Origin: a virus
Strand: one strand, 5' to 3'
Virus genome (UHGV): UHGV-1370141
DNA: 64,000 nt
The notes below the pieces were generated by a model, which had not been told where the DNA came from, did no database searches, and saw only the letters and a program-made list of their open reading frames with translations. The translations under genes and the position numbers were made by a program. Below, piece after piece: positions 718 through 64,000 of the stretch (the first letter of the stretch is position 1; every line of letters begins with the position of its first letter).

Positions 718-1533
718 TTATTTAGTCGCTACGTATTGAACATGACCACATCCCTTACATTGCACATTGGCTTGCGGGAATGTTAGGCCGGTTAAAGGAA
801 CACGGATTTGATACTGTGCTCCACATTCTTCACAAACAAAATCGTGTTCTGGATAAACACGACCTTTCAATTTCTCATCCTTCCTTAACGTTTCAGCCAG
901 GAAATGCATGGCTCCTAACGCTTCATTAATCTGCTGTTCCCATTCACCGTCTAACGGATATGCGAAAGCACGAATCAACGTTTCCACCATCTCTGGCTTA
1001 TTGCTCACGTAGACGTGTTTCAATTCAAACTCTACACGTTGTAGACCGAACAGCACACGTGCAGTTACCGTTACATTATCTAACGTTTGTGAGAACACAC
1101 CGGTGTTGTCGTCTGCCTGTAATACAAATTCGGAGGCACGCTCGTAGTCAATATCACTCCACTCCACCAACCGTACGTTTTGTATTGCTTCTGCGACTTT
1201 AGGGTTACCGTAAATAGGATGTAGCAGAAAACCCAGGATAACTTCATTCATTGCTTTTAATCGCTCTAAGCGTACTACTGGGTCAGTATTAACCACGAGC
1301 AAGCGTAAAAGCCTGGACTTCAGCCAGCTAAGGCCGCAAGAAACGTTTACAGCAACCGTACAGACACTTACTTCTTTAGGCTCGAGGAGAATGAAACTCG
1401 GTTTACCTCCTACATTAGTTAGGTAAATAACAAACTCACCGCTATTAGACTTACTGATGATTTCCATCGAATCCGCTGGTACGAAATGGTCACTACTGAT
1501 GCCGGTCGGAAAATAGTCTTTGATAGTTTTCAT
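718..1533 (-). CDS. hypothetical protein with C-terminal CxxC...CxxC zinc-ribbon
   Basis: 271-aa ORF; C-terminal CEECG...CKGCG. Confidence 0.6.
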   Translation of the reverse strand: MKTIKDYFPTGISSDHFVPADSMEIISKSNSGEFVIYLTNVGGKPSFILLEPKEVSVCTVAVNVSCGLSWLKSRLLRLLVVNTDPVVRLERLKAMNEVILGFLLHPIYGNPKVAEAIQNVRLVEWSDIDYERASEFVLQADDNTGVFSQTLDNVTVTARVLFGLQRVEFELKHVYVSNKPEMVETLIRAFAYPLDGEWEQQINEALGAMHFLAETLRKDEKLKGRVYPEHDFVCEECGAQYQIRVPLTGLTFPQANVQCKGCGHVQYVATK

Positions 1534-59986: not shown

Positions 59987-60079
59987 GGTACCACCTCCTA
60001 TAAATACATACCAGTACCGTAAAAATCAAAAAAAATGGGGACACGCAGTCCCCAAACACCCTCTATAGCTGATTTATAG

Positions 60080-60520
60080 TTATACTAATTCGGCAACGTG
60101 TCGTTCGTGGTAGAGCTCTGCTAACTGCTTCGTTTTAATACGTAACTCACCTCTGTCGTAAACTAATACCCGACCTGCCCCGTTTGTTCCTAACTCGGTA
60201 TAAATCGCTAAACCGTACCGTCTTACAAATTCAATTGCCGGGAACGTAAATTCTTCACCGTCACAACGAAACACCAACATACACCACGGATTAGGGTTTA
60301 GGTGCTTACGCTCTTTCCCGTCCGCCCACCGTAAACTAAATTCATTCCGATTACGATTCAACACACGTTCAACGAATCGCTCTACTAACTTACCGGTTGG
60401 CCCATCTTCAGGTAACGCTTGCCACACGGAGAAATGTCGTGACAGAAACGGACGAATAACCGCCGCTTCTTCGAATGAATAACCCATACCCATTAATCCT
60501 TCAATCGCATCTAATTTCAT
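60080..60520 (-). CDS. hypothetical protein (146 aa)
   Basis: ORF track. Confidence 0.55.
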   Translation of the reverse strand: MKLDAIEGLMGMGYSFEEAAVIRPFLSRHFSVWQALPEDGPTGKLVERFVERVLNRNRNEFSLRWADGKERKHLNPNPWCMLVFRCDGEEFTFPAIEFVRRYGLAIYTELGTNGAGRVLVYDRGELRIKTKQLAELYHERHVAELV

Positions 60521-60563
60521 TTTATCAGTTCCTAAAAAGTCGAAGTAAACGTTTCACGCGAAC

Positions 60564-60588
60564 ACTCACTAAAATAATATCTATCTCT
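60564..60588 (-). promoter_or_regulatory. AT-rich promoter-like motif (class 2)
   Basis: plus-strand ACTCACTAAAATAATATCTATCTCT ~45 nt upstream of 60520 start. Confidence 0.4.
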
Positions 60589-60601
60589 AAAATTTTGCGA
60601 T

Positions 60602-60638
60602 AAAAAAGAATATACCTACCTCCTTTCGGAGGTAGGTA
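60602..60638 (-). terminator. terminator hairpin
   Basis: A-run then TACCTACCTCC-TTTC-GGAGGTAGGTA. Confidence 0.55.
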
Positions 60639-60740
60639 CGTTCCCTGGCATCGGCATGAAACTACAGGATTAAACCCTTCAGGGCATGAGAATGGGCATT
60701 CTCGAAGGGCGGGCTTTAGCTTTCGGCAGAGCTAAACTGG

Positions 60741-61388
60741 TTATCTCAGGTTATCGATGGTTTTACCTTCACTGTTCATGATGTAAACCGCATCACCTGG
60801 ATAGAAAAATTCGTAAGCATCGTCGACATGTAACACGCCGATAGCCTCGTCAACAGAGTGCTTACCGCTACGGAGCTGATTCTGATAGAAAGTATCACCG
60901 TCTTCGTTGATCAACTCGCGGACTAATTCGACTTCTTGAGATGGAATTGCAAAAGACATCTCTTCTAGGGTAAACCCTACAAAACGGCACACAAAGTCGA
61001 CTGTTACCCCAGGAACATAAATTTCATCGACGGACGTTTCTCCGGTATCCGGATTAAACGGTCGAATAAAAACGACACGTCCAGATGGTGAGGTAGCTTT
61101 CTGTCCTGGAAATGCCCAGGCCCAACCGTCGGTGTTTTTCAGAAATGGGTAAATGGCAGTCAACGTTGACGCTATAAGCAGAGGATCTAACCCTATCAGG
61201 GTCTCATACTCAATCCGAGTGGGTTTTCTCGGCAAATCGATGGCGCTGTTAAAACATAATTCGTTATTTTCGCCGTTAACGACTTTAAGTGCTTCTTTGT
61301 AAACACGGGACATTTTGTCACCTAAACGTACACGTTCGTGTACAGTGATGACTCGATCACCGTTAATGATACGTTTAACTGTAAGCAT
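60741..61388 (-). CDS. hypothetical protein (215 aa)
   Basis: ORF track. Confidence 0.55.
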   Translation of the reverse strand: MLTVKRIINGDRVITVHERVRLGDKMSRVYKEALKVVNGENNELCFNSAIDLPRKPTRIEYETLIGLDPLLIASTLTAIYPFLKNTDGWAWAFPGQKATSPSGRVVFIRPFNPDTGETSVDEIYVPGVTVDFVCRFVGFTLEEMSFAIPSQEVELVRELINEDGDTFYQNQLRSGKHSVDEAIGVLHVDDAYEFFYPGDAVYIMNSEGKTIDNLR

Positions 61389-62041
61389 TTCTGTTACCTC
61401 GTTCTGTTACTACTACTCGTTCTGTTGTACGTCGCTATACCCCGACGTGTGGGTTAATGGGACGCGTTGAACGTCTGTTGAGGCGCAGCAGGCAGTGGCA
61501 GCAATGACAGCAAGGGCAGCAATGGTACAAACGCCAACGCGAATAAAAAACGCTACTGTCACTGAACACAGCTTCAGAATACTGACAATAACGCAAAAAG
61601 GGTGTCGCTAACGGGTGTCGAGCCCCAGCCTCGGTGTGTAGCCACGTCACCAGGCATAGCGACAAAGTTCGGTACTGGTCAAACACAGCATGACATGGGA
61701 CGATGAAGGTTTACAGGTGATCATCGACCAGTACCGTCGAGTTAACACGTAACTCTCAATTCACATTACAGGGTATTCACGTTACACTTAGGGGAAATAC
61801 CCAATAATTAAATTCTTGGTGGGTGCAGGTGGGAGGTTTTATCCTCCCACCGTACAACCGTTTAGGTGGTCTAACCACCAGGGTCTCACGACCCTAACGT
61901 AAGTCCGAACTTAATCGGTAGGTGTTTACACGTTTTTAAGGAGCTTTCTACCCGTGAGCAAGAGCAGAAGTTATCAGAACAACCGACGCTCAGTTGAAGG
62001 CTGACGAGTTTGTAACTCTTGTTCGATTGCTCTAATCTGGG

Positions 62042-62114
62042 CGACCAATGGCAGGATTCGAACCTGCGAAATAACCGATTATTAGTCGGGTGTTAATTCC
62101 TCTAACTTCAATGG
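62042..62114 (-). tRNA. tRNA-like gene, possibly degenerate (anticodon loop reads as AAU)
   Basis: hand-folded cloverleaf: T-arm GCAGG-TTCGAAT-CCTGC, D-arm GTTA/TAAC with GG loop; but A at position 8, a U-U acceptor mismatch and a C-U anticodon-stem mismatch. Confidence 0.4.
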
Positions 62115-62124
62115 TCTAAATCCA

Positions 62125-62625
62125 TCAAAACAGCTTAAGTGATTGCGTTTGTCCGCCGCTGTACAGGTCGTAACGTTTCGCCACTTCCACCGCAGTGGGG
62201 GCGTCAACGCCAGCGCCTAATGCACCCAGGGCATAGTGAGCACCTGAGCCTATCGCATACGGTGGCTCTACAAACACGTAACTGGCGTATTTGTTGTCTT
62301 TGCACTTCGAGGCATCAATAACACGCCCGTCTGTCAAAACAGCAAGTACGATAAATTCAATCTGTTCGGGATACGTCGTTTCAAAACGAACCCCACCCCG
62401 TTCGATACCGCCGAAACGTTCAAGCGTGAGTTCTTGACGCACGGATTGCAATGCGGCGACATCACCTGCCAAACCAATCGCTTTCACGTCCTCACCCAAA
62501 AGCTTCCACGTCGTACCCTCAGGCGGCGTGTGAATCTTACGGTATTGCGTAGCAGCGCTTCGCTCTTCCACGGTGACTTGGCCATCGCAAGCTAACGTCT
62601 TTCCGTCAAAAACAATCGTGGTCAT
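62125..62625 (-). CDS. hslV: HslV-like Ntn-hydrolase peptidase (proteasome beta-type)
   Basis: MTTIVFDG...ACDGQVT...GLAGDVAA...AIGSGAHYALGA matches HslV MTTIV...AGDGQ...GFAGG...AIGSGG pattern (recalled); start overlaps upstream stop (TAATG). Confidence 0.65.
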   Translation of the reverse strand: MTTIVFDGKTLACDGQVTVEERSAATQYRKIHTPPEGTTWKLLGEDVKAIGLAGDVAALQSVRQELTLERFGGIERGGVRFETTYPEQIEFIVLAVLTDGRVIDASKCKDNKYASYVFVEPPYAIGSGAHYALGALGAGVDAPTAVEVAKRYDLYSGGQTQSLKLF

Positions 62626-62969
62626 TATGGCGAACCCCAATCCATGATGAACGTAGCCATGCACTGCTCGGCGTGTTTCATGATAGCTTTGTGCAAGCAT
62701 CTCTGAACCGCTGAGAACAGGTAAGGCCGATAACACACATGCGACTCCTTGGGAGACGGGGTGTGAGTAACCAACTGACCATCGGTGAGTTTAACACAAA
62801 CCGTAACAAGCTCTGTGTTTCGCCAATGGTTCACTGACACTGTCTCGATGCAGTTTAGCAGCGACGAATCATAACAACCCCAATTCTCGGGCGCTTTTAG
62901 CAGCCTGCCCAATTCATCGAGTCGGTACGGGACATTCGAACCGATGTTCGGAACGTCTTTGGAATCCAT
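62625..62969 (-). CDS. hypothetical protein, translationally coupled to hslV-like gene
   Basis: start moved to MDSKDV ATG preceded by GGAG; track start 63065 lies in ORF-poor sequence. Confidence 0.4.
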   Translation of the reverse strand: MDSKDVPNIGSNVPYRLDELGRLLKAPENWGCYDSSLLNCIETVSVNHWRNTELVTVCVKLTDGQLVTHTPSPKESHVCYRPYLFSAVQRCLHKAIMKHAEQCMATFIMDWGSP

Positions 62970-63649
62970 ATTAAAATCTCCTGCCGTGGTTTGTGTCACA
63001 CCAACAGGAAACTCTGTAAAAAATAATTCAGCTGCGTACCGGCGTTTCTCAACGGGAGTACGCACCCCTCTCGTCTTTGCGAGCCGTCAAGCTAGAGGAC
63101 ATCACACTGCCAGCGCTACCTGGAGCAGGGTTGTTTCGACGCAACGTCGTAATTCGGATTCTGGCCGCACCTCTGGGAGCGCATCCCACCGTCGGCTGCC
63201 CGCAGGTAAGTTCTACGGACCTCTCGCCAACGTCGCCCCCAGAGGCTGCCACGGTTCACTCGGATTTTCTCATGTCGGCCACGCGTCGCTGATAGCGCGG
63301 CTTCCCCCAAACTTCGTAAGTCGCGGGAACGGTACCGAGCACCTGAATTCGTGGGGTTTACCAACCCCTGAGGTTTTTATCCGAAGTCACGGAAACCCCA
63401 TAGTAAAACAAACCGCCAGTGTTAGGCCGAACGTTTTGTTTTTCCCAGCACACGGTGAACTAAAATCCATGCACTTGAAAAAACACCCCTGGCCAATAAC
63501 CAACCAGGGGGTTCGAGCTCTGCTGAATCATCGCAGACAGTAATCGTGTTGAGCTGTGAGCAGTAATACCTGAACTCCGAAAAATCTTCGTGGTTGTAAA
63601 TCAACCCCACGCAAATCCTCCGAACATACCATAGGGTTTTAACGTTCGG

Positions 63650-63858
63650 AAAAGGGGAATGGGGGTTTACCCCTTGGGTCAGGTGTTCAGGATCTCCCCG
63701 GAAGGGTAACCCCTACCCGATCCCCCAGGTGGGGATTTTACCCTGGCGAATTACCCCGGGTACGATTTTCGGTTTTTCCGGAAAATACCGCTCACCGATC
63801 CCCACCCCCTCACCGGGGGTCAGAGCGAGATCAGATCTCATAATAAGGATCGCGCGCG
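63650..63858. repeat. GC-rich cluster of short palindromes and G/C tracts
   Basis: GGGGAATGGGGG, CCCCAGGTGGGG, TTTTCCGGAAAA (perfect 12-bp palindrome), CCCCACCCCCTCACCGGGGG, GATCGCGCGCG; no credible ORF. Confidence 0.45.
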
Positions 63859-63977
63859 TTTTATATATATTTATATATAATATATATTATATATAATAAT
63901 TATATTATTAATATATTTATTTAATATATTTATATTTATTAAAATAAATATATATTAAAATATATAATTAAATAATA
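63859..63977. repeat. 119-bp tract of pure A+T
   Basis: no G or C between ~63859 and ~63977; TATATA/ATTAT-type low complexity. Confidence 0.7.
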
Positions 63978-64000
63978 CCAAAAGGTATTATTATTTTGAT

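Follow-up and report, generated by a model that had tools for sequence, protein, structure and literature searches.

The DNA analyzed here, a stretch of 64,000 nucleotides referred to below as the window, derives from an SPN3US/Asesino-type, nucleus-forming jumbo phage, and the GC-rich interval and adjoining A+T tract at its right-hand end are half of a conserved noncoding locus of ~1.8 kb found in SPN3US/Asesino-type jumbo phages. At the center of this locus sits an A+T-only tract, a real, reproducible, and genome-unique element that carries CG/CA clamps, CCT-N-AGG-type palindromes, and dense GATC sites on both sides in every lineage. Beside it, sequence comparison predicts a structured minus-strand RNA of ~0.85 kb, spanning roughly 63850 to 63015. 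We infer that the tract is a DNA-level cis element and the most easily unwound point of the genome, and we put at roughly 40% the probability that it acts as the unwinding element of a transcription-coupled phage replication origin. The features of the locus and its neighborhood are collected in Table 1.

Table 1. Coordinates of features in and beside the noncoding locus (window positions)
Feature	Position	Strand	Remarks
tRNA-Ile	62040-62116	-	
HslV-like peptidase gene	62125-62627	-	
114-aa ORF	62625-62969	-	GGAG 8 nt upstream
Same-strand genes downstream of the predicted RNA	62040-62969	-	
Predicted RNA, 3' domain	63017-63262	-	Most conserved part; invariant AGACGAGAGGGGUG and CGGCUCG
Predicted RNA, middle part	63263-63576	-	Conserved blocks ACCUGAA, CUAACACUG, and UUUUUCGA (alignments A1-A3)
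GC-rich, lineage-variable hairpin region	63577-63826	-	Holds most of the "palindrome cluster"
Conserved box, three GATC sites and a short hairpin	63827-63850	-	Plus strand GAGATCAGATCTC-ATAATAAGGATC; RNA sense GATCCTTATTATGAGATCTGATCTC
GATC sites left of the tract	63691, 63719, 63797, 63829, 63834, 63848		
Left GC clamp, (CG)4, alternating purine-pyrimidine run	63851-63858	.	Read from the sequence
AT-only tract	63859-63977	.	Left part of a ~195-bp AT-rich core extending past the window end
Small palindrome AATACC-AAAA-GGTATT interrupting the tract	63974-63989	.	Read directly
Continuation of the AT-rich core	63990-64000	.	Cut off at the window end

The 119-bp run of pure A+T described in a first-pass annotation of this DNA was confirmed and is unique in the 64-kb window, where the next-longest run of A and T only measures 18 bp. 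The AT-rich core to which it belongs is truncated by the window end, and in same-lineage relatives it continues for ~75 bp more, up to a second GC clamp. The final GAT of the window (63998-64000) represents the first bases of a conserved GATCC, and beyond the window end the sequences of L120 and L142 continue with TTTTGATCCTAAAGGAATAATATATTTATAAATAAATATATTATACTATA, next CGTGTGCGCACGCACACGCG, and next TATAAGGAAGAGATC. In every lineage, an alternating CG/CA run of 8-30 bp flanks the tract on both sides. Counterparts of the small palindrome that interrupts the tract take the form AATACCTAAAGGTATT in the window lineage and in SPN3US-like phages and of two ATATCTAAAGATAT copies in Asesino and EaH2, and a related palindrome, GATCC-NNN-AGGA, is positioned at the right edge of the tract in all relatives; these small palindromes could form a binding site for a dimeric protein. 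The motifs flanking the tract are found nowhere else in the 64-kb window. Large inverted repeats across the tract amounted to just low-information AT-on-AT matches, and comparison of the left and right noncoding halves detected no similarity, so that a giant palindrome or duplication was dropped as an explanation.

The tract is base-for-base identical in the independent assemblies L110, L120, and L142, and homologous AT tracts with matching flanks were identified in SPN3US-like phages, in Asesino/EaH2-like phages, and in two metagenomic lineages. One architecture is common to five lineages, including the SPN3US-like MET_P1_082_240 (MET), Asesino, and EaH2 (cultured phages), and the coding genes of the five share ~72-76% nucleotide identity, in patches only. 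In the complete 243-kb MET genome, the tract is the longest AT-only run, the densest GATC window, and the most AT-rich 150-bp stretch (85% vs. 71% for the next). These comparisons dispose of the chimeric join that the first-pass annotation had raised as a concern. An artefact of assembly, or a chimeric join where a contig stops, would fit the location of the tract at the window end and the seven contigs that end in or at it, with L110 (a 224,834-bp contig) ending inside the tract and L039 and L018 beginning there. However, L120 (a 224,530-bp contig) and L142 both read through the same 119 bases from one flank to the other, L118, L123, and L009 do so for variants of them, and homologous tracts lie internal to the finished genome record of MET and to the isolates Asesino and EaH2. 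With an identical tract in three other assemblies, misassembly is refuted as far as sequence comparison reaches, and we give it next to no weight; assemblies break here frequently because of the base composition of the tract. The tract is therefore a predictable assembly break point in 220-250-kb genomes, and contig ends found there are not to be taken for physical termini. The SPN3US record also starts about 100 bp away from the tract, and record starts in this phage family are a matter of convention (PMC6256631).

In the close relatives that span the tract, 13 GATC sites fall within 570 bp centered on it (22.8 vs. 2.3 per kb), and the remainder of the noncoding locus, outside these 570 bp, contains none. 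Six of the sites lie to the left of the tract, one inside it, and six to the right, and the cluster is conserved in other lineages. Their contexts are mixed (AGATCA, GGATCG, TGATCC, and CGATCC) and do not represent one repeated hexamer. The relatives encode a DNA adenine methylase or methyltransferase, and by adenine methylation of the flanking GATC sites the phage's own methylase may modulate use of the tract.

The evidence for a structured RNA to the left of the tract comes in part from its 3' domain, for which covariation was tested in an alignment of 13 sequences and 42 pairs (alignment A5) against 500 shuffles and slid controls. In this alignment, 96.5% of cells pair, compared with 86.8% in shuffles; 15 pairs have changed on both sides; and the covariation score is 0.37, compared with 0.195 in shuffles and at most 0.09 in the slid controls. 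None of the 500 shuffles reached the observed value for any of these three measures. By our own tally ~94 of the 546 cells are G·U, equivalent to A·C on the plus strand. RNAalifold applied to the whole region gave -51.8 kcal/mol for the minus strand vs. -27.5 for the plus strand, and -151 vs. -113 when rerun with ribosum scoring, and the long-range helices of the RNA covary and favor the minus strand. Compensatory pair changes beyond those of the controls were thus found together with a strand preference, the combination that characterizes structured noncoding RNAs. The ends of the RNA were placed by conservation, which exceeds that of the neighboring coding genes. The first-pass annotation was right that ~1 kb here is devoid of convincing open reading frames (ORFs): across 62970-64000 there is no conserved ORF, and the longest stop-free stretches switch strand and frame among relatives. 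A 199-aa ORF at 62944-63543 on the plus strand was rejected as a gene, as it is not kept in relatives.

Within the middle part of the predicted RNA, a terminator-like hairpin followed by a U run is found at 63510-63486 on the minus strand. The hairpin is always present but its sequence is lineage dependent (CCTGGCCAATAACCAACCAGG, CCTGGGTAACAATCCCAGG, or CCCTGGCTGGTGAAGACCAGGG), and the lineages of L040 and L066 lack the U run; it could be that what we treat as one RNA is really two transcripts. The tract-proximal portion, 63577-63850, is a lineage-variable hairpin region of the same RNA. Among nine sequences of the window lineage, stems in 63577-63826 persist, whereas indels alter loops and whole hairpins, and two pairs have changed to U·G pairs possible in the minus sense only (CG in four and UG in five sequences; AU in seven and GU in two). 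Identity to close relatives across 63577-63826 is 90-99%, vs. 82-97% for the adjoining coding genes, and in other lineages the sequence of this part is unrelated and forms hairpins too. The exception is the box at 63827-63850, the only part of 63650-63858 that is conserved across all lineages; it is unique in the window when up to three mismatches are allowed and may contain the promoter and the 5' end of the RNA.

The GC-rich interval singled out in the first-pass annotation, 63650-63858, is compositionally exceptional: it is 57% GC, vs. a window mean of 46%; it contains 11 runs of at least four G or C bases, vs. at most six (mean 0.54) in other 209-bp stretches of the window; and it is the only 250-bp interval of the window with six GATC sites (mean 0.58). 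Both G/C runs and GATC sites reach their highest density in the window here. The perfect palindrome TTTTCCGGAAAA that had been reported is present at 63774-63785, but on neither strand does the predicted folding energy of 63600-63850 improve on dinucleotide-shuffled sequence (z = -1.2 and -1.1); most of the "palindrome cluster" is therefore to be expected from base composition. The minus-strand G-quadruplex potential that had been proposed did not hold up: there is no canonical motif (loops of up to 7) in the 64-kb window, and the one relaxed motif (loops of up to 12), on the minus strand at 63696-63726, is absent from L009, which is 88% identical, and from all other lineages. That this interval acts as DNA, through G-quadruplexes, cruciforms, or iterons of an origin, might be argued from its unequaled G/C-run density, from the relaxed quadruplex motif, and from four copies of T[TA]ACCC within 63667-63751, yet we think it very unlikely. 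The richness in G/C runs is lineage specific (9-11 runs in the window lineage vs. 1-5 elsewhere), folding is at shuffle level, the variation is of the kind expected of RNA, the U·G pairs being confined to a single strand, and the interval runs on without a break into an RNA in which the distal helices show covariation. The GC-rich part is better assigned to the minus-strand structured RNA than to a DNA palindrome or quadruplex module.

The HslV-like peptidase gene and the tRNA genes share the strand of the RNA and lie directly downstream of it. The same order is found in SPN3US-like phages and in Asesino, in which the RNA is followed directly by an HslV-family peptidase gene and then by tRNA genes, 14 of which are annotated in Asesino.

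If the tract is the unwinding element of a replication origin, it would melt, and transcription leaving it may help to open or prime it, in a manner comparable to T4 oriF and oriG, the T7 primary origin, and ColE1. Leftward transcription from the tract would produce the large RNA, and rightward transcription would probably produce a second RNA of ~220 nt. The first ~220 nt of the right-hand side show a weak plus-strand preference (22 G·U cells vs. 2 A·C) and terminate in a hairpin and T run on the plus strand, while folding of the right-hand noncoding half as a whole clearly favors neither strand. [quoted passage not shown]

Base composition lends weak support to an origin at this position. 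Across the 64 kb to the left of the tract, the minus strand is enriched in G at the third-codon positions of genes of either orientation (GC3 skew of +0.048 for minus-strand genes and -0.114 for plus-strand genes), and this left arm shows the polarity expected of an origin. In MET, the detrended cumulative GC skew is lowest 0.6 kb from the tract and highest 115 kb away, and a two-switch fit to GC3 yields a plateau for the origin-like switch, 177-190 kb, that includes the tract (186.6 kb), although the permutation result was borderline (1 of 60). In Asesino, the detrended skew reaches its lowest point some 10 kb from the tract, and the two-switch fit chooses 90-116 kb instead (4 of 60 permutations). 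Comparison of the two sides of the locus gave the expected sign of skew in three lineages, with overlapping confidence intervals. Because ~86% of the genes are on one strand, plain skew is confounded by transcription, and because the GC3 fit is borderline in MET and not reproduced in Asesino, we do not rest the proposed origin on it. The first-pass annotation had offered an origin with an unwinding element, a packaging or terminal region, or an assembly boundary; all three were reasonable suggestions for a place that is indeed special and has a genome-unique tract, with the qualification that composition backs the origin only weakly.

At T4 oriF and oriG, the T7 primary origin, and ColE1 RNA II, transcription enters the unwinding element and the transcript forms the primer. 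The locus resembles these systems in that an AT-rich unwinding element would adjoin transcription units, a structured RNA is predicted beside the element, and host initiator boxes are not required. It differs from them in that the well-supported RNA reads away from the tract and in that the tract exceeds their elements by far in length and purity (119-195 bp, entirely or nearly free of G and C), is GC-clamped, and is GATC-flanked. As in E. coli oriC and P1 oriR, an AT-rich region is embedded among closely spaced GATC (Dam) sites, of which oriC has 11 within about 245 bp and this locus 13 within 570 bp. Unlike those origins, the locus lacks host-type initiator signals. Motifs were counted in the 1.7-kb L142 locus, which is 97% identical to the window after the anchor, and this contains no DnaA box (TTWTNCACA), whereas the 64-kb window contains five, none of which is at the locus. 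Neither a match to the oriC-type 13-mer GATCTNTTNTTTT nor an IHF site or iterons were detected in the locus. A host-type initiator is unlikely in any case, since most host proteins are kept out of the protein shell in which the phage replicates (review PMC13282480).

Much of this layout would also be expected if the tract were a divergent promoter hub and nothing more, that is, a shared UP-element-like, easily melted region of two outward promoters without a role in replication, serving the large minus-strand RNA and the HslV/tRNA operon on one side and the small plus-strand RNA on the other; we consider this possible but rather unlikely. The left RNA, predicted on the minus strand, reads outward from the tract, the right-hand ~220-nt segment has the weak opposite preference and terminal hairpin described above, and both flanks display, facing outward, a GC run, a TATAAG, TATAAT, or TTATTAT-like hexamer, and GAGATC...GATC, the -10-like reading of these boxes having been made by eye. 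At the right edge of the locus, moreover, the upstream minus-strand gene ends in a strong terminator, which makes a new promoter necessary somewhere within the locus. Set against this, the recurrent promoter motif of the phage, AGATA-N-ATATTA-YCT-N-GT, which occurs at eight minus-strand sites in the window, is unmatched here: in a position weight matrix scan in which true sites score at least 21.9 and background reaches 12.7, the best scores were 6.5 in 63540-64000 and 13.0 in the AT-rich part past the window. The boxes on the flanks are absent from the rest of the window, and a sigma-70 scan for a promoter of the RNA returned nothing beyond plus-strand TATAAT matches within AT-rich sequence; phiKZ-type phages are not known to depend on the host sigma-70 polymerase. 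Plus-strand TAATAAG/TATAAT-like hexamers left of the tract, which are consensus matches only, could read into it. No known promoter depends on a GC-clamped stretch of 120-195 bp of A+T alone that is accompanied by clustered GATC sites, and divergent transcription is also compatible with an origin, as transcription-primed origins share the arrangement.

Another function to be weighed is that of a P1-type headful pac site, with GATC clusters around a central region and methylation-controlled cleavage by terminase, which appears improbable. P1 pac comprises 162 bp inside pacA, in which a single hexamer (TGATCA/G) recurs seven times alongside an IHF site. Here too, GATC motifs occupy both sides of a central region, in a symmetric 6/1/6 arrangement shared with other lineages, the phage encodes its own adenine methylase, headful packaging is assumed, and the large terminase gene is about 4-5 kb from the locus in MET and Asesino. 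Unlike P1 pac, however, the locus is noncoding, has a pure A+T center and heterogeneous GATC contexts, is without an IHF site, and neither lies in nor adjoins a terminase gene. T4-type packaging is not known to need a unique pac site, and near-identical SPFM phage records start at scattered positions, which fits random permutation better than a strong pac end. For this family, headful packaging has been assumed on the strength of terminase homology, one paper invoking phiKZ and another T4 gp17 (PMC6256631; PMC5694885). Still less probable in our estimation is that the tract is a functionless, slippage-prone AT-rich spacer that is tolerated between two noncoding RNA genes and whose main effect is to break assemblies. 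Its length and sequence are very different between lineages (about 64 to 195 bp), it shifts in length by indels within the window lineage (119 bp, 96 bp in L118 and L123, and shorter in L009), AA/TT dinucleotides show no phasing in it, and the seven contigs terminate there; the length variation implies that much of the tract may indeed be slippage-prone spacer. However, an AT-only tract, clamps, palindromes, and a GATC cluster have been kept in place across five lineages, the tract is 100% identical in three relatives although adjacent coding genes there differ by 3-5%, and nothing comparable exists elsewhere in the 243 kb of MET. We continue to prefer an unwinding element of a transcription-coupled origin.

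A broader proposal, about which we are appreciably more doubtful, is that the locus is an initiation or genome-organizing center that would combine a clamped, methylation-marked A+T element with two undescribed structured RNAs, the 0.85-kb RNA representing a new large ornate class and aiding initiation, as primer, opener, or scaffold, or else the handling of the tRNA cluster. GOLLD and ROOL are large ornate noncoding RNAs of phages and prophages that constitute Rfam families, and both multimerize. The predicted RNA is similar to them in being large (0.6-0.85 kb), highly structured, phage encoded, and on the same strand as and beside tRNA genes. It differs in being coupled to an AT tract, in belonging to jumbo phages of enterobacterial hosts, and in having no match to any Rfam model: a cmscan search (E <=1) covering window positions 60000-64000 and five related loci gave no hits other than tRNAs and, outside the region, chance matches. 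The literature searched likewise contained nothing on this locus, or on a noncoding RNA or origin in SPN3US-like or nucleus-forming phages, and the RNA is previously undescribed. It would join the few known large ornate phage RNAs, the functions of which are unsolved. In 43 deposited genomes, the region of the RNA is unannotated or overlaid by spurious small ORFs, and in L090 an HNH endonuclease ORF has been inserted, in the RNA sense, in a variable loop. A scan of genome contigs produced chance matches in GC-rich bacteria and one phage contig that had been binned as a Bacillota MAG.

The end of the window holds 119 consecutive A/T bases (63859–63977, read directly), the second-longest AT-only run of the 64-kb window being 18 bp. 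In the 209 bp before it (63650–63858) there are 11 G or C runs four or more bases long, against a maximum of 6 and a mean of 0.54 in other 209-bp stretches of the window. Direct reading and counting thus confirm a G/C-run-rich stretch abutting an A/T tract, as the first-pass annotation had described. GC content is 57% in this stretch versus 46% in the window, and its six GATC sites make it the sole 250-bp interval of the window with six. The palindrome cluster proposed there was borne out in part: the perfect palindrome TTTTCCGGAAAA is present at 63774–63785, but on neither strand is 63600–63850 predicted to fold more stably than dinucleotide shuffles (z = −1.2, −1.1). The proposed minus-strand G-quadruplex potential reduces to a single relaxed motif (loops ≤12) at 63696–63726, and no canonical G-quadruplex motif is present in the window. 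A G-quadruplex or iteron element acting at the DNA level is highly improbable.

The region matches jumbo phages of the SPN3US (Seoulvirus) and Asesino/EaH2 (Erskinevirus) groups in patches of 72–76% identity; these groups are nucleus-forming (PMC13282480). None of the 43 matching GenBank phage records has an annotation under the matched stretch. Genes lie almost all on one strand, minus in window orientation. In the differently permuted record of MET_P1_082_240 (MET; OQ383623.1), a complete 243-kb SPN3US-like relative, the homologous intergenic stretch measures about 1.8 kb, and the same layout (see table) is found in Asesino, EaH2, the metagenomic lineages L040/L089/L092 and L066, and the close window relatives L009, L018, and L039. 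The flagged locus is confirmed as real and conserved, and the window end falls within its AT-rich core. Asesino also annotates a tRNA-Ile(aat), one of 14 clustered tRNA genes that follow the large RNA described below.

Features of the locus and its surroundings (window coordinates unless stated; layout elements run left to right in window orientation)
Feature	Position	Strand	Remarks
Promoter-like motif (first bases)	9593, 60589, 1804, 50529, 50449, 58204, 36845, 42041	minus	
tRNA-Ile	62040–62116	minus	anticodon AAT, unusual; sole tRNA found in window
HslV-like peptidase	62125–62627	minus	among last genes before flagged interval
114-aa ORF	62625–62969	minus	among last genes before flagged interval
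Terminator-like hairpin	63486–63510; U run 63476–63485	minus	middle of large-RNA region
Right-hand noncoding region	L142 reverse strand, about +985 to +1650 from anchor; L002 5085–5745; L003 (Asesino locus) 1070–1530		
Layout 1			~0.85 kb conserved noncoding sequence
Layout 2			box GATC-NN(N)-GATCTC-N-TAATAAGGATC
Layout 3	left of tract		CG/CA alternating run
Layout 4			AT tract, about 64–195 bp, with small palindromes inside: AATACCTAAAGGTATT, or ATATCTAAAGATAT twice
Layout 5			GATCC-NNN-AGGA
Layout 6			second CG/CA alternating run
Layout 7			TATAAGGAA or TATAATGAA, then GRGATC
Layout 8			further conserved noncoding sequence, about 450–650 nt, up to bidirectional terminator

Scanning metagenomes and genomes with a conserved motif yielded additional copies. 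The identical 119 bases, flanked alike, are present in the independent contigs L110, L120, and L142; L118 and L123 have a 96-bp variant, and the tract is read straight through in L120, L142, L118, L123, and L009. Because identical or variant copies are spanned by several other contigs, the tract is genuine, and an assembly artefact is scarcely credible. The suggestion of an assembly boundary nevertheless holds in one respect, as seven contigs, some of 150–240 kb, start or stop at the tract (L039, L018, L110, L116, L124, L113, and L122), and the SPN3US record starts ~100 bp from it. For the SPN3US phage family, base 1 is placed by aligning records with relatives, and headful packaging is assumed (PMC6256631). 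With record starts conventional, contig ends at the tract indicate a habitual assembly break point and are not evidence of a physical end. L142 (JAEWFE010000254.1, 13.7 kb), which carries the large RNA, the 119-bp tract, and the right half, is labelled part of a Bacillota metagenome-assembled genome; it shares 97% identity with the window beyond the anchor and is almost certainly a mis-binned jumbo-phage contig.

Left of the tract, a structured RNA very probably exists on the minus strand. When the 0.87-kb left region was aligned for nine sequences from five lineages, RNAalifold gave −27.5 kcal/mol and 36 pairs, 12 with changes on both sides, for the plus strand, versus −51.8 kcal/mol and 57 pairs, 22 with changes on both sides, for the reverse complement. 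Many of the minus-strand pairs are G·U where the plus strand has A·C, and an independent ribosum-scored run gave −151 (minus) versus −113 (plus), with 169 versus 104 G·U cells. The 3′ domain (63017–63262, minus strand) was tested with 13 sequences, 42 pairs, and 500 shuffles: 96.5% of cells pair versus 86.8% in shuffles, 15 pairs have changes on both sides, and the covariation score is 0.37 versus 0.195, none of these values being reached in any of the 500 shuffles. Sliding the partners by 1–3 columns lowered the covariation score to ≤0.09. In 63577–63852, nine window-lineage sequences retain the stems, with indel variation in loops and in entire hairpins, and two pairs change to U·G in the minus sense only. 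No conserved ORF over the region was found among relatives, and it is more conserved than the adjoining protein genes; against L009, identity is 96.7% in the 3′ domain and 83.8% in coding genes. Judged by conservation, the RNA would run from ~63850 to ~63015. Rfam contains no match to it in the window and five relatives, and no description of it was found in the literature searched.

These results change how the GC-rich part is read. Apart from the GATC/TAATAAGGATC box, the sequence of 63650–63858 is unrelated between lineages, and richness in G/C runs is peculiar to the window lineage (9–11 runs versus 1–5 in others). Among the readings offered by the first-pass annotation, that of an origin composed of GC palindromes and an unwinding element is half right: unwinding is a plausible role for the AT tract, but the GC-rich part very probably forms the variable end of a large, newly recognised structured RNA gene.

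The tract stands out as a DNA element. In MET it is the longest AT-only run of the 243-kb genome (71 + 35 bp versus 18 for the next) and the most AT-rich 150 bp (85% versus 71%), and it lies within the genome's densest GATC window. In L142, 13 GATC sites fall in 570 bp centred on the tract, 22.8 per kb versus 2.3 per kb in the window, with no further site in the other 1.1 kb of the locus. Genes for a DNA adenine methylase occur in relatives. The locus lacks DnaA boxes, IHF sites, oriC 13-mers, and AA/TT phasing, the boxes flanking the tract have no second occurrence within the window, and the left and right noncoding halves are unrelated to each other. A P1-like pac site is quite unlikely and a functionless spacer slightly less likely still. 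The second densest GATC cluster of MET (~107.9–108.3 kb, 7 in 400 bp) lies within the portal protein gene.

Because 86% of genes are on one strand, third-codon-position skew was split by gene orientation. Coding-strand GC3 skew in the window is +0.048 for minus-strand genes and −0.114 for plus-strand genes (6 of 7 negative); with these opposite signs, the minus strand is G-rich whatever the gene orientation, up to the tract, as would be expected on the left side of an origin. MET has window-like polarity over 80–180 kb and reversed polarity over 180–220 kb and 20–80 kb, its detrended cumulative skew reaching a minimum at 185,972, 0.6 kb from the tract, and a maximum at 70,740. A two-switch fit placed the origin-like switch on a 177–190 kb plateau, with a modest gain over the no-switch model that 1 of 60 permutations equalled. 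The fit for Asesino picks another region (4 of 60 permutations), its plain minimum being ~10 kb from the tract. Comparison of the two sides of the locus, over 30 kb each way in MET and Asesino and over ~29 kb to the left and about 7 kb to the right in the window lineage, gave the expected sign in three of three lineages, with overlapping confidence intervals. Our preferred explanation is that the locus would be an origin coupled to transcription and marked by Dam-type GATC sites; given the modest, borderline MET fit, the Asesino mismatch, and the overlapping intervals, we hold it as the best available guess (probability about 0.4) and not as a finding.

Transcription could also account for the locus by itself, as a divergent promoter hub only. 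Beyond the window end, on the far side of the tract, the conserved noncoding region of 450–650 nt contains the invariant blocks TTTTTGATCG(T/G)CGCGGCGG, ACCCAAGTGTAC, and CTGGTTAAAAA and hairpins that differ in sequence between lineages, and it probably represents one or two more RNAs. Its first ~220 nt have a weak plus-strand preference (22 G·U versus 2 A·C cells), contain a hairpin with a different sequence in each lineage, and finish with a GC hairpin and T run on the plus strand; fold comparison over the whole right half favours neither strand. Divergent transcription away from the tract would fit this pattern, if thinly. However, the phage's recurrent promoter-like motif, (C/T)T(C/G)AGATA(T/G)ATATTA(C/T)CT-N-GT, found upstream of minus-strand genes in the window, has no match within or near the tract, and a hub alone is rather unlikely. 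In short form the motif reads AGATA-N-ATATTA-YCT-N-GT; eight minus-strand sites score at least 21.9 and the next best 12.7, and the motif resembles the phiKZ early-promoter core, TATATTAC.

The large-RNA region may be one transcript or two, given its internal terminator-like hairpin and U run. Across several lineages the hairpin keeps its place while its sequence changes in a compensatory manner, and the U run is absent in the L040 and L066 lineages. A short form occurs in L066, L119, and L129, where the TAATAAGGATC box lies 439–539 nt after the anchor versus 780–850 nt elsewhere, and that lineage dispenses with ~300 nt of the variable part. Three small "hypothetical protein" coding sequences of Asesino, gp289, gp288, and gp287 (L003 152–325, 377–595, and 1172–1381), overlap the structured RNA and the right-hand noncoding region and are probably spurious, since there is no conserved ORF there. 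In L090 (IMGVR_UViG_2974508059_000001, 244,950 bp; reverse strand, about 1097–1966), the RNA gene carries a ~612-nt insertion in a variable loop near window position 63100. The insertion contains an ORF, oriented like the RNA, that has an HNH endonuclease signature (...HSCDNPACINVDHL...HQENMQD); it resembles a homing endonuclease that has inserted into a peripheral loop.
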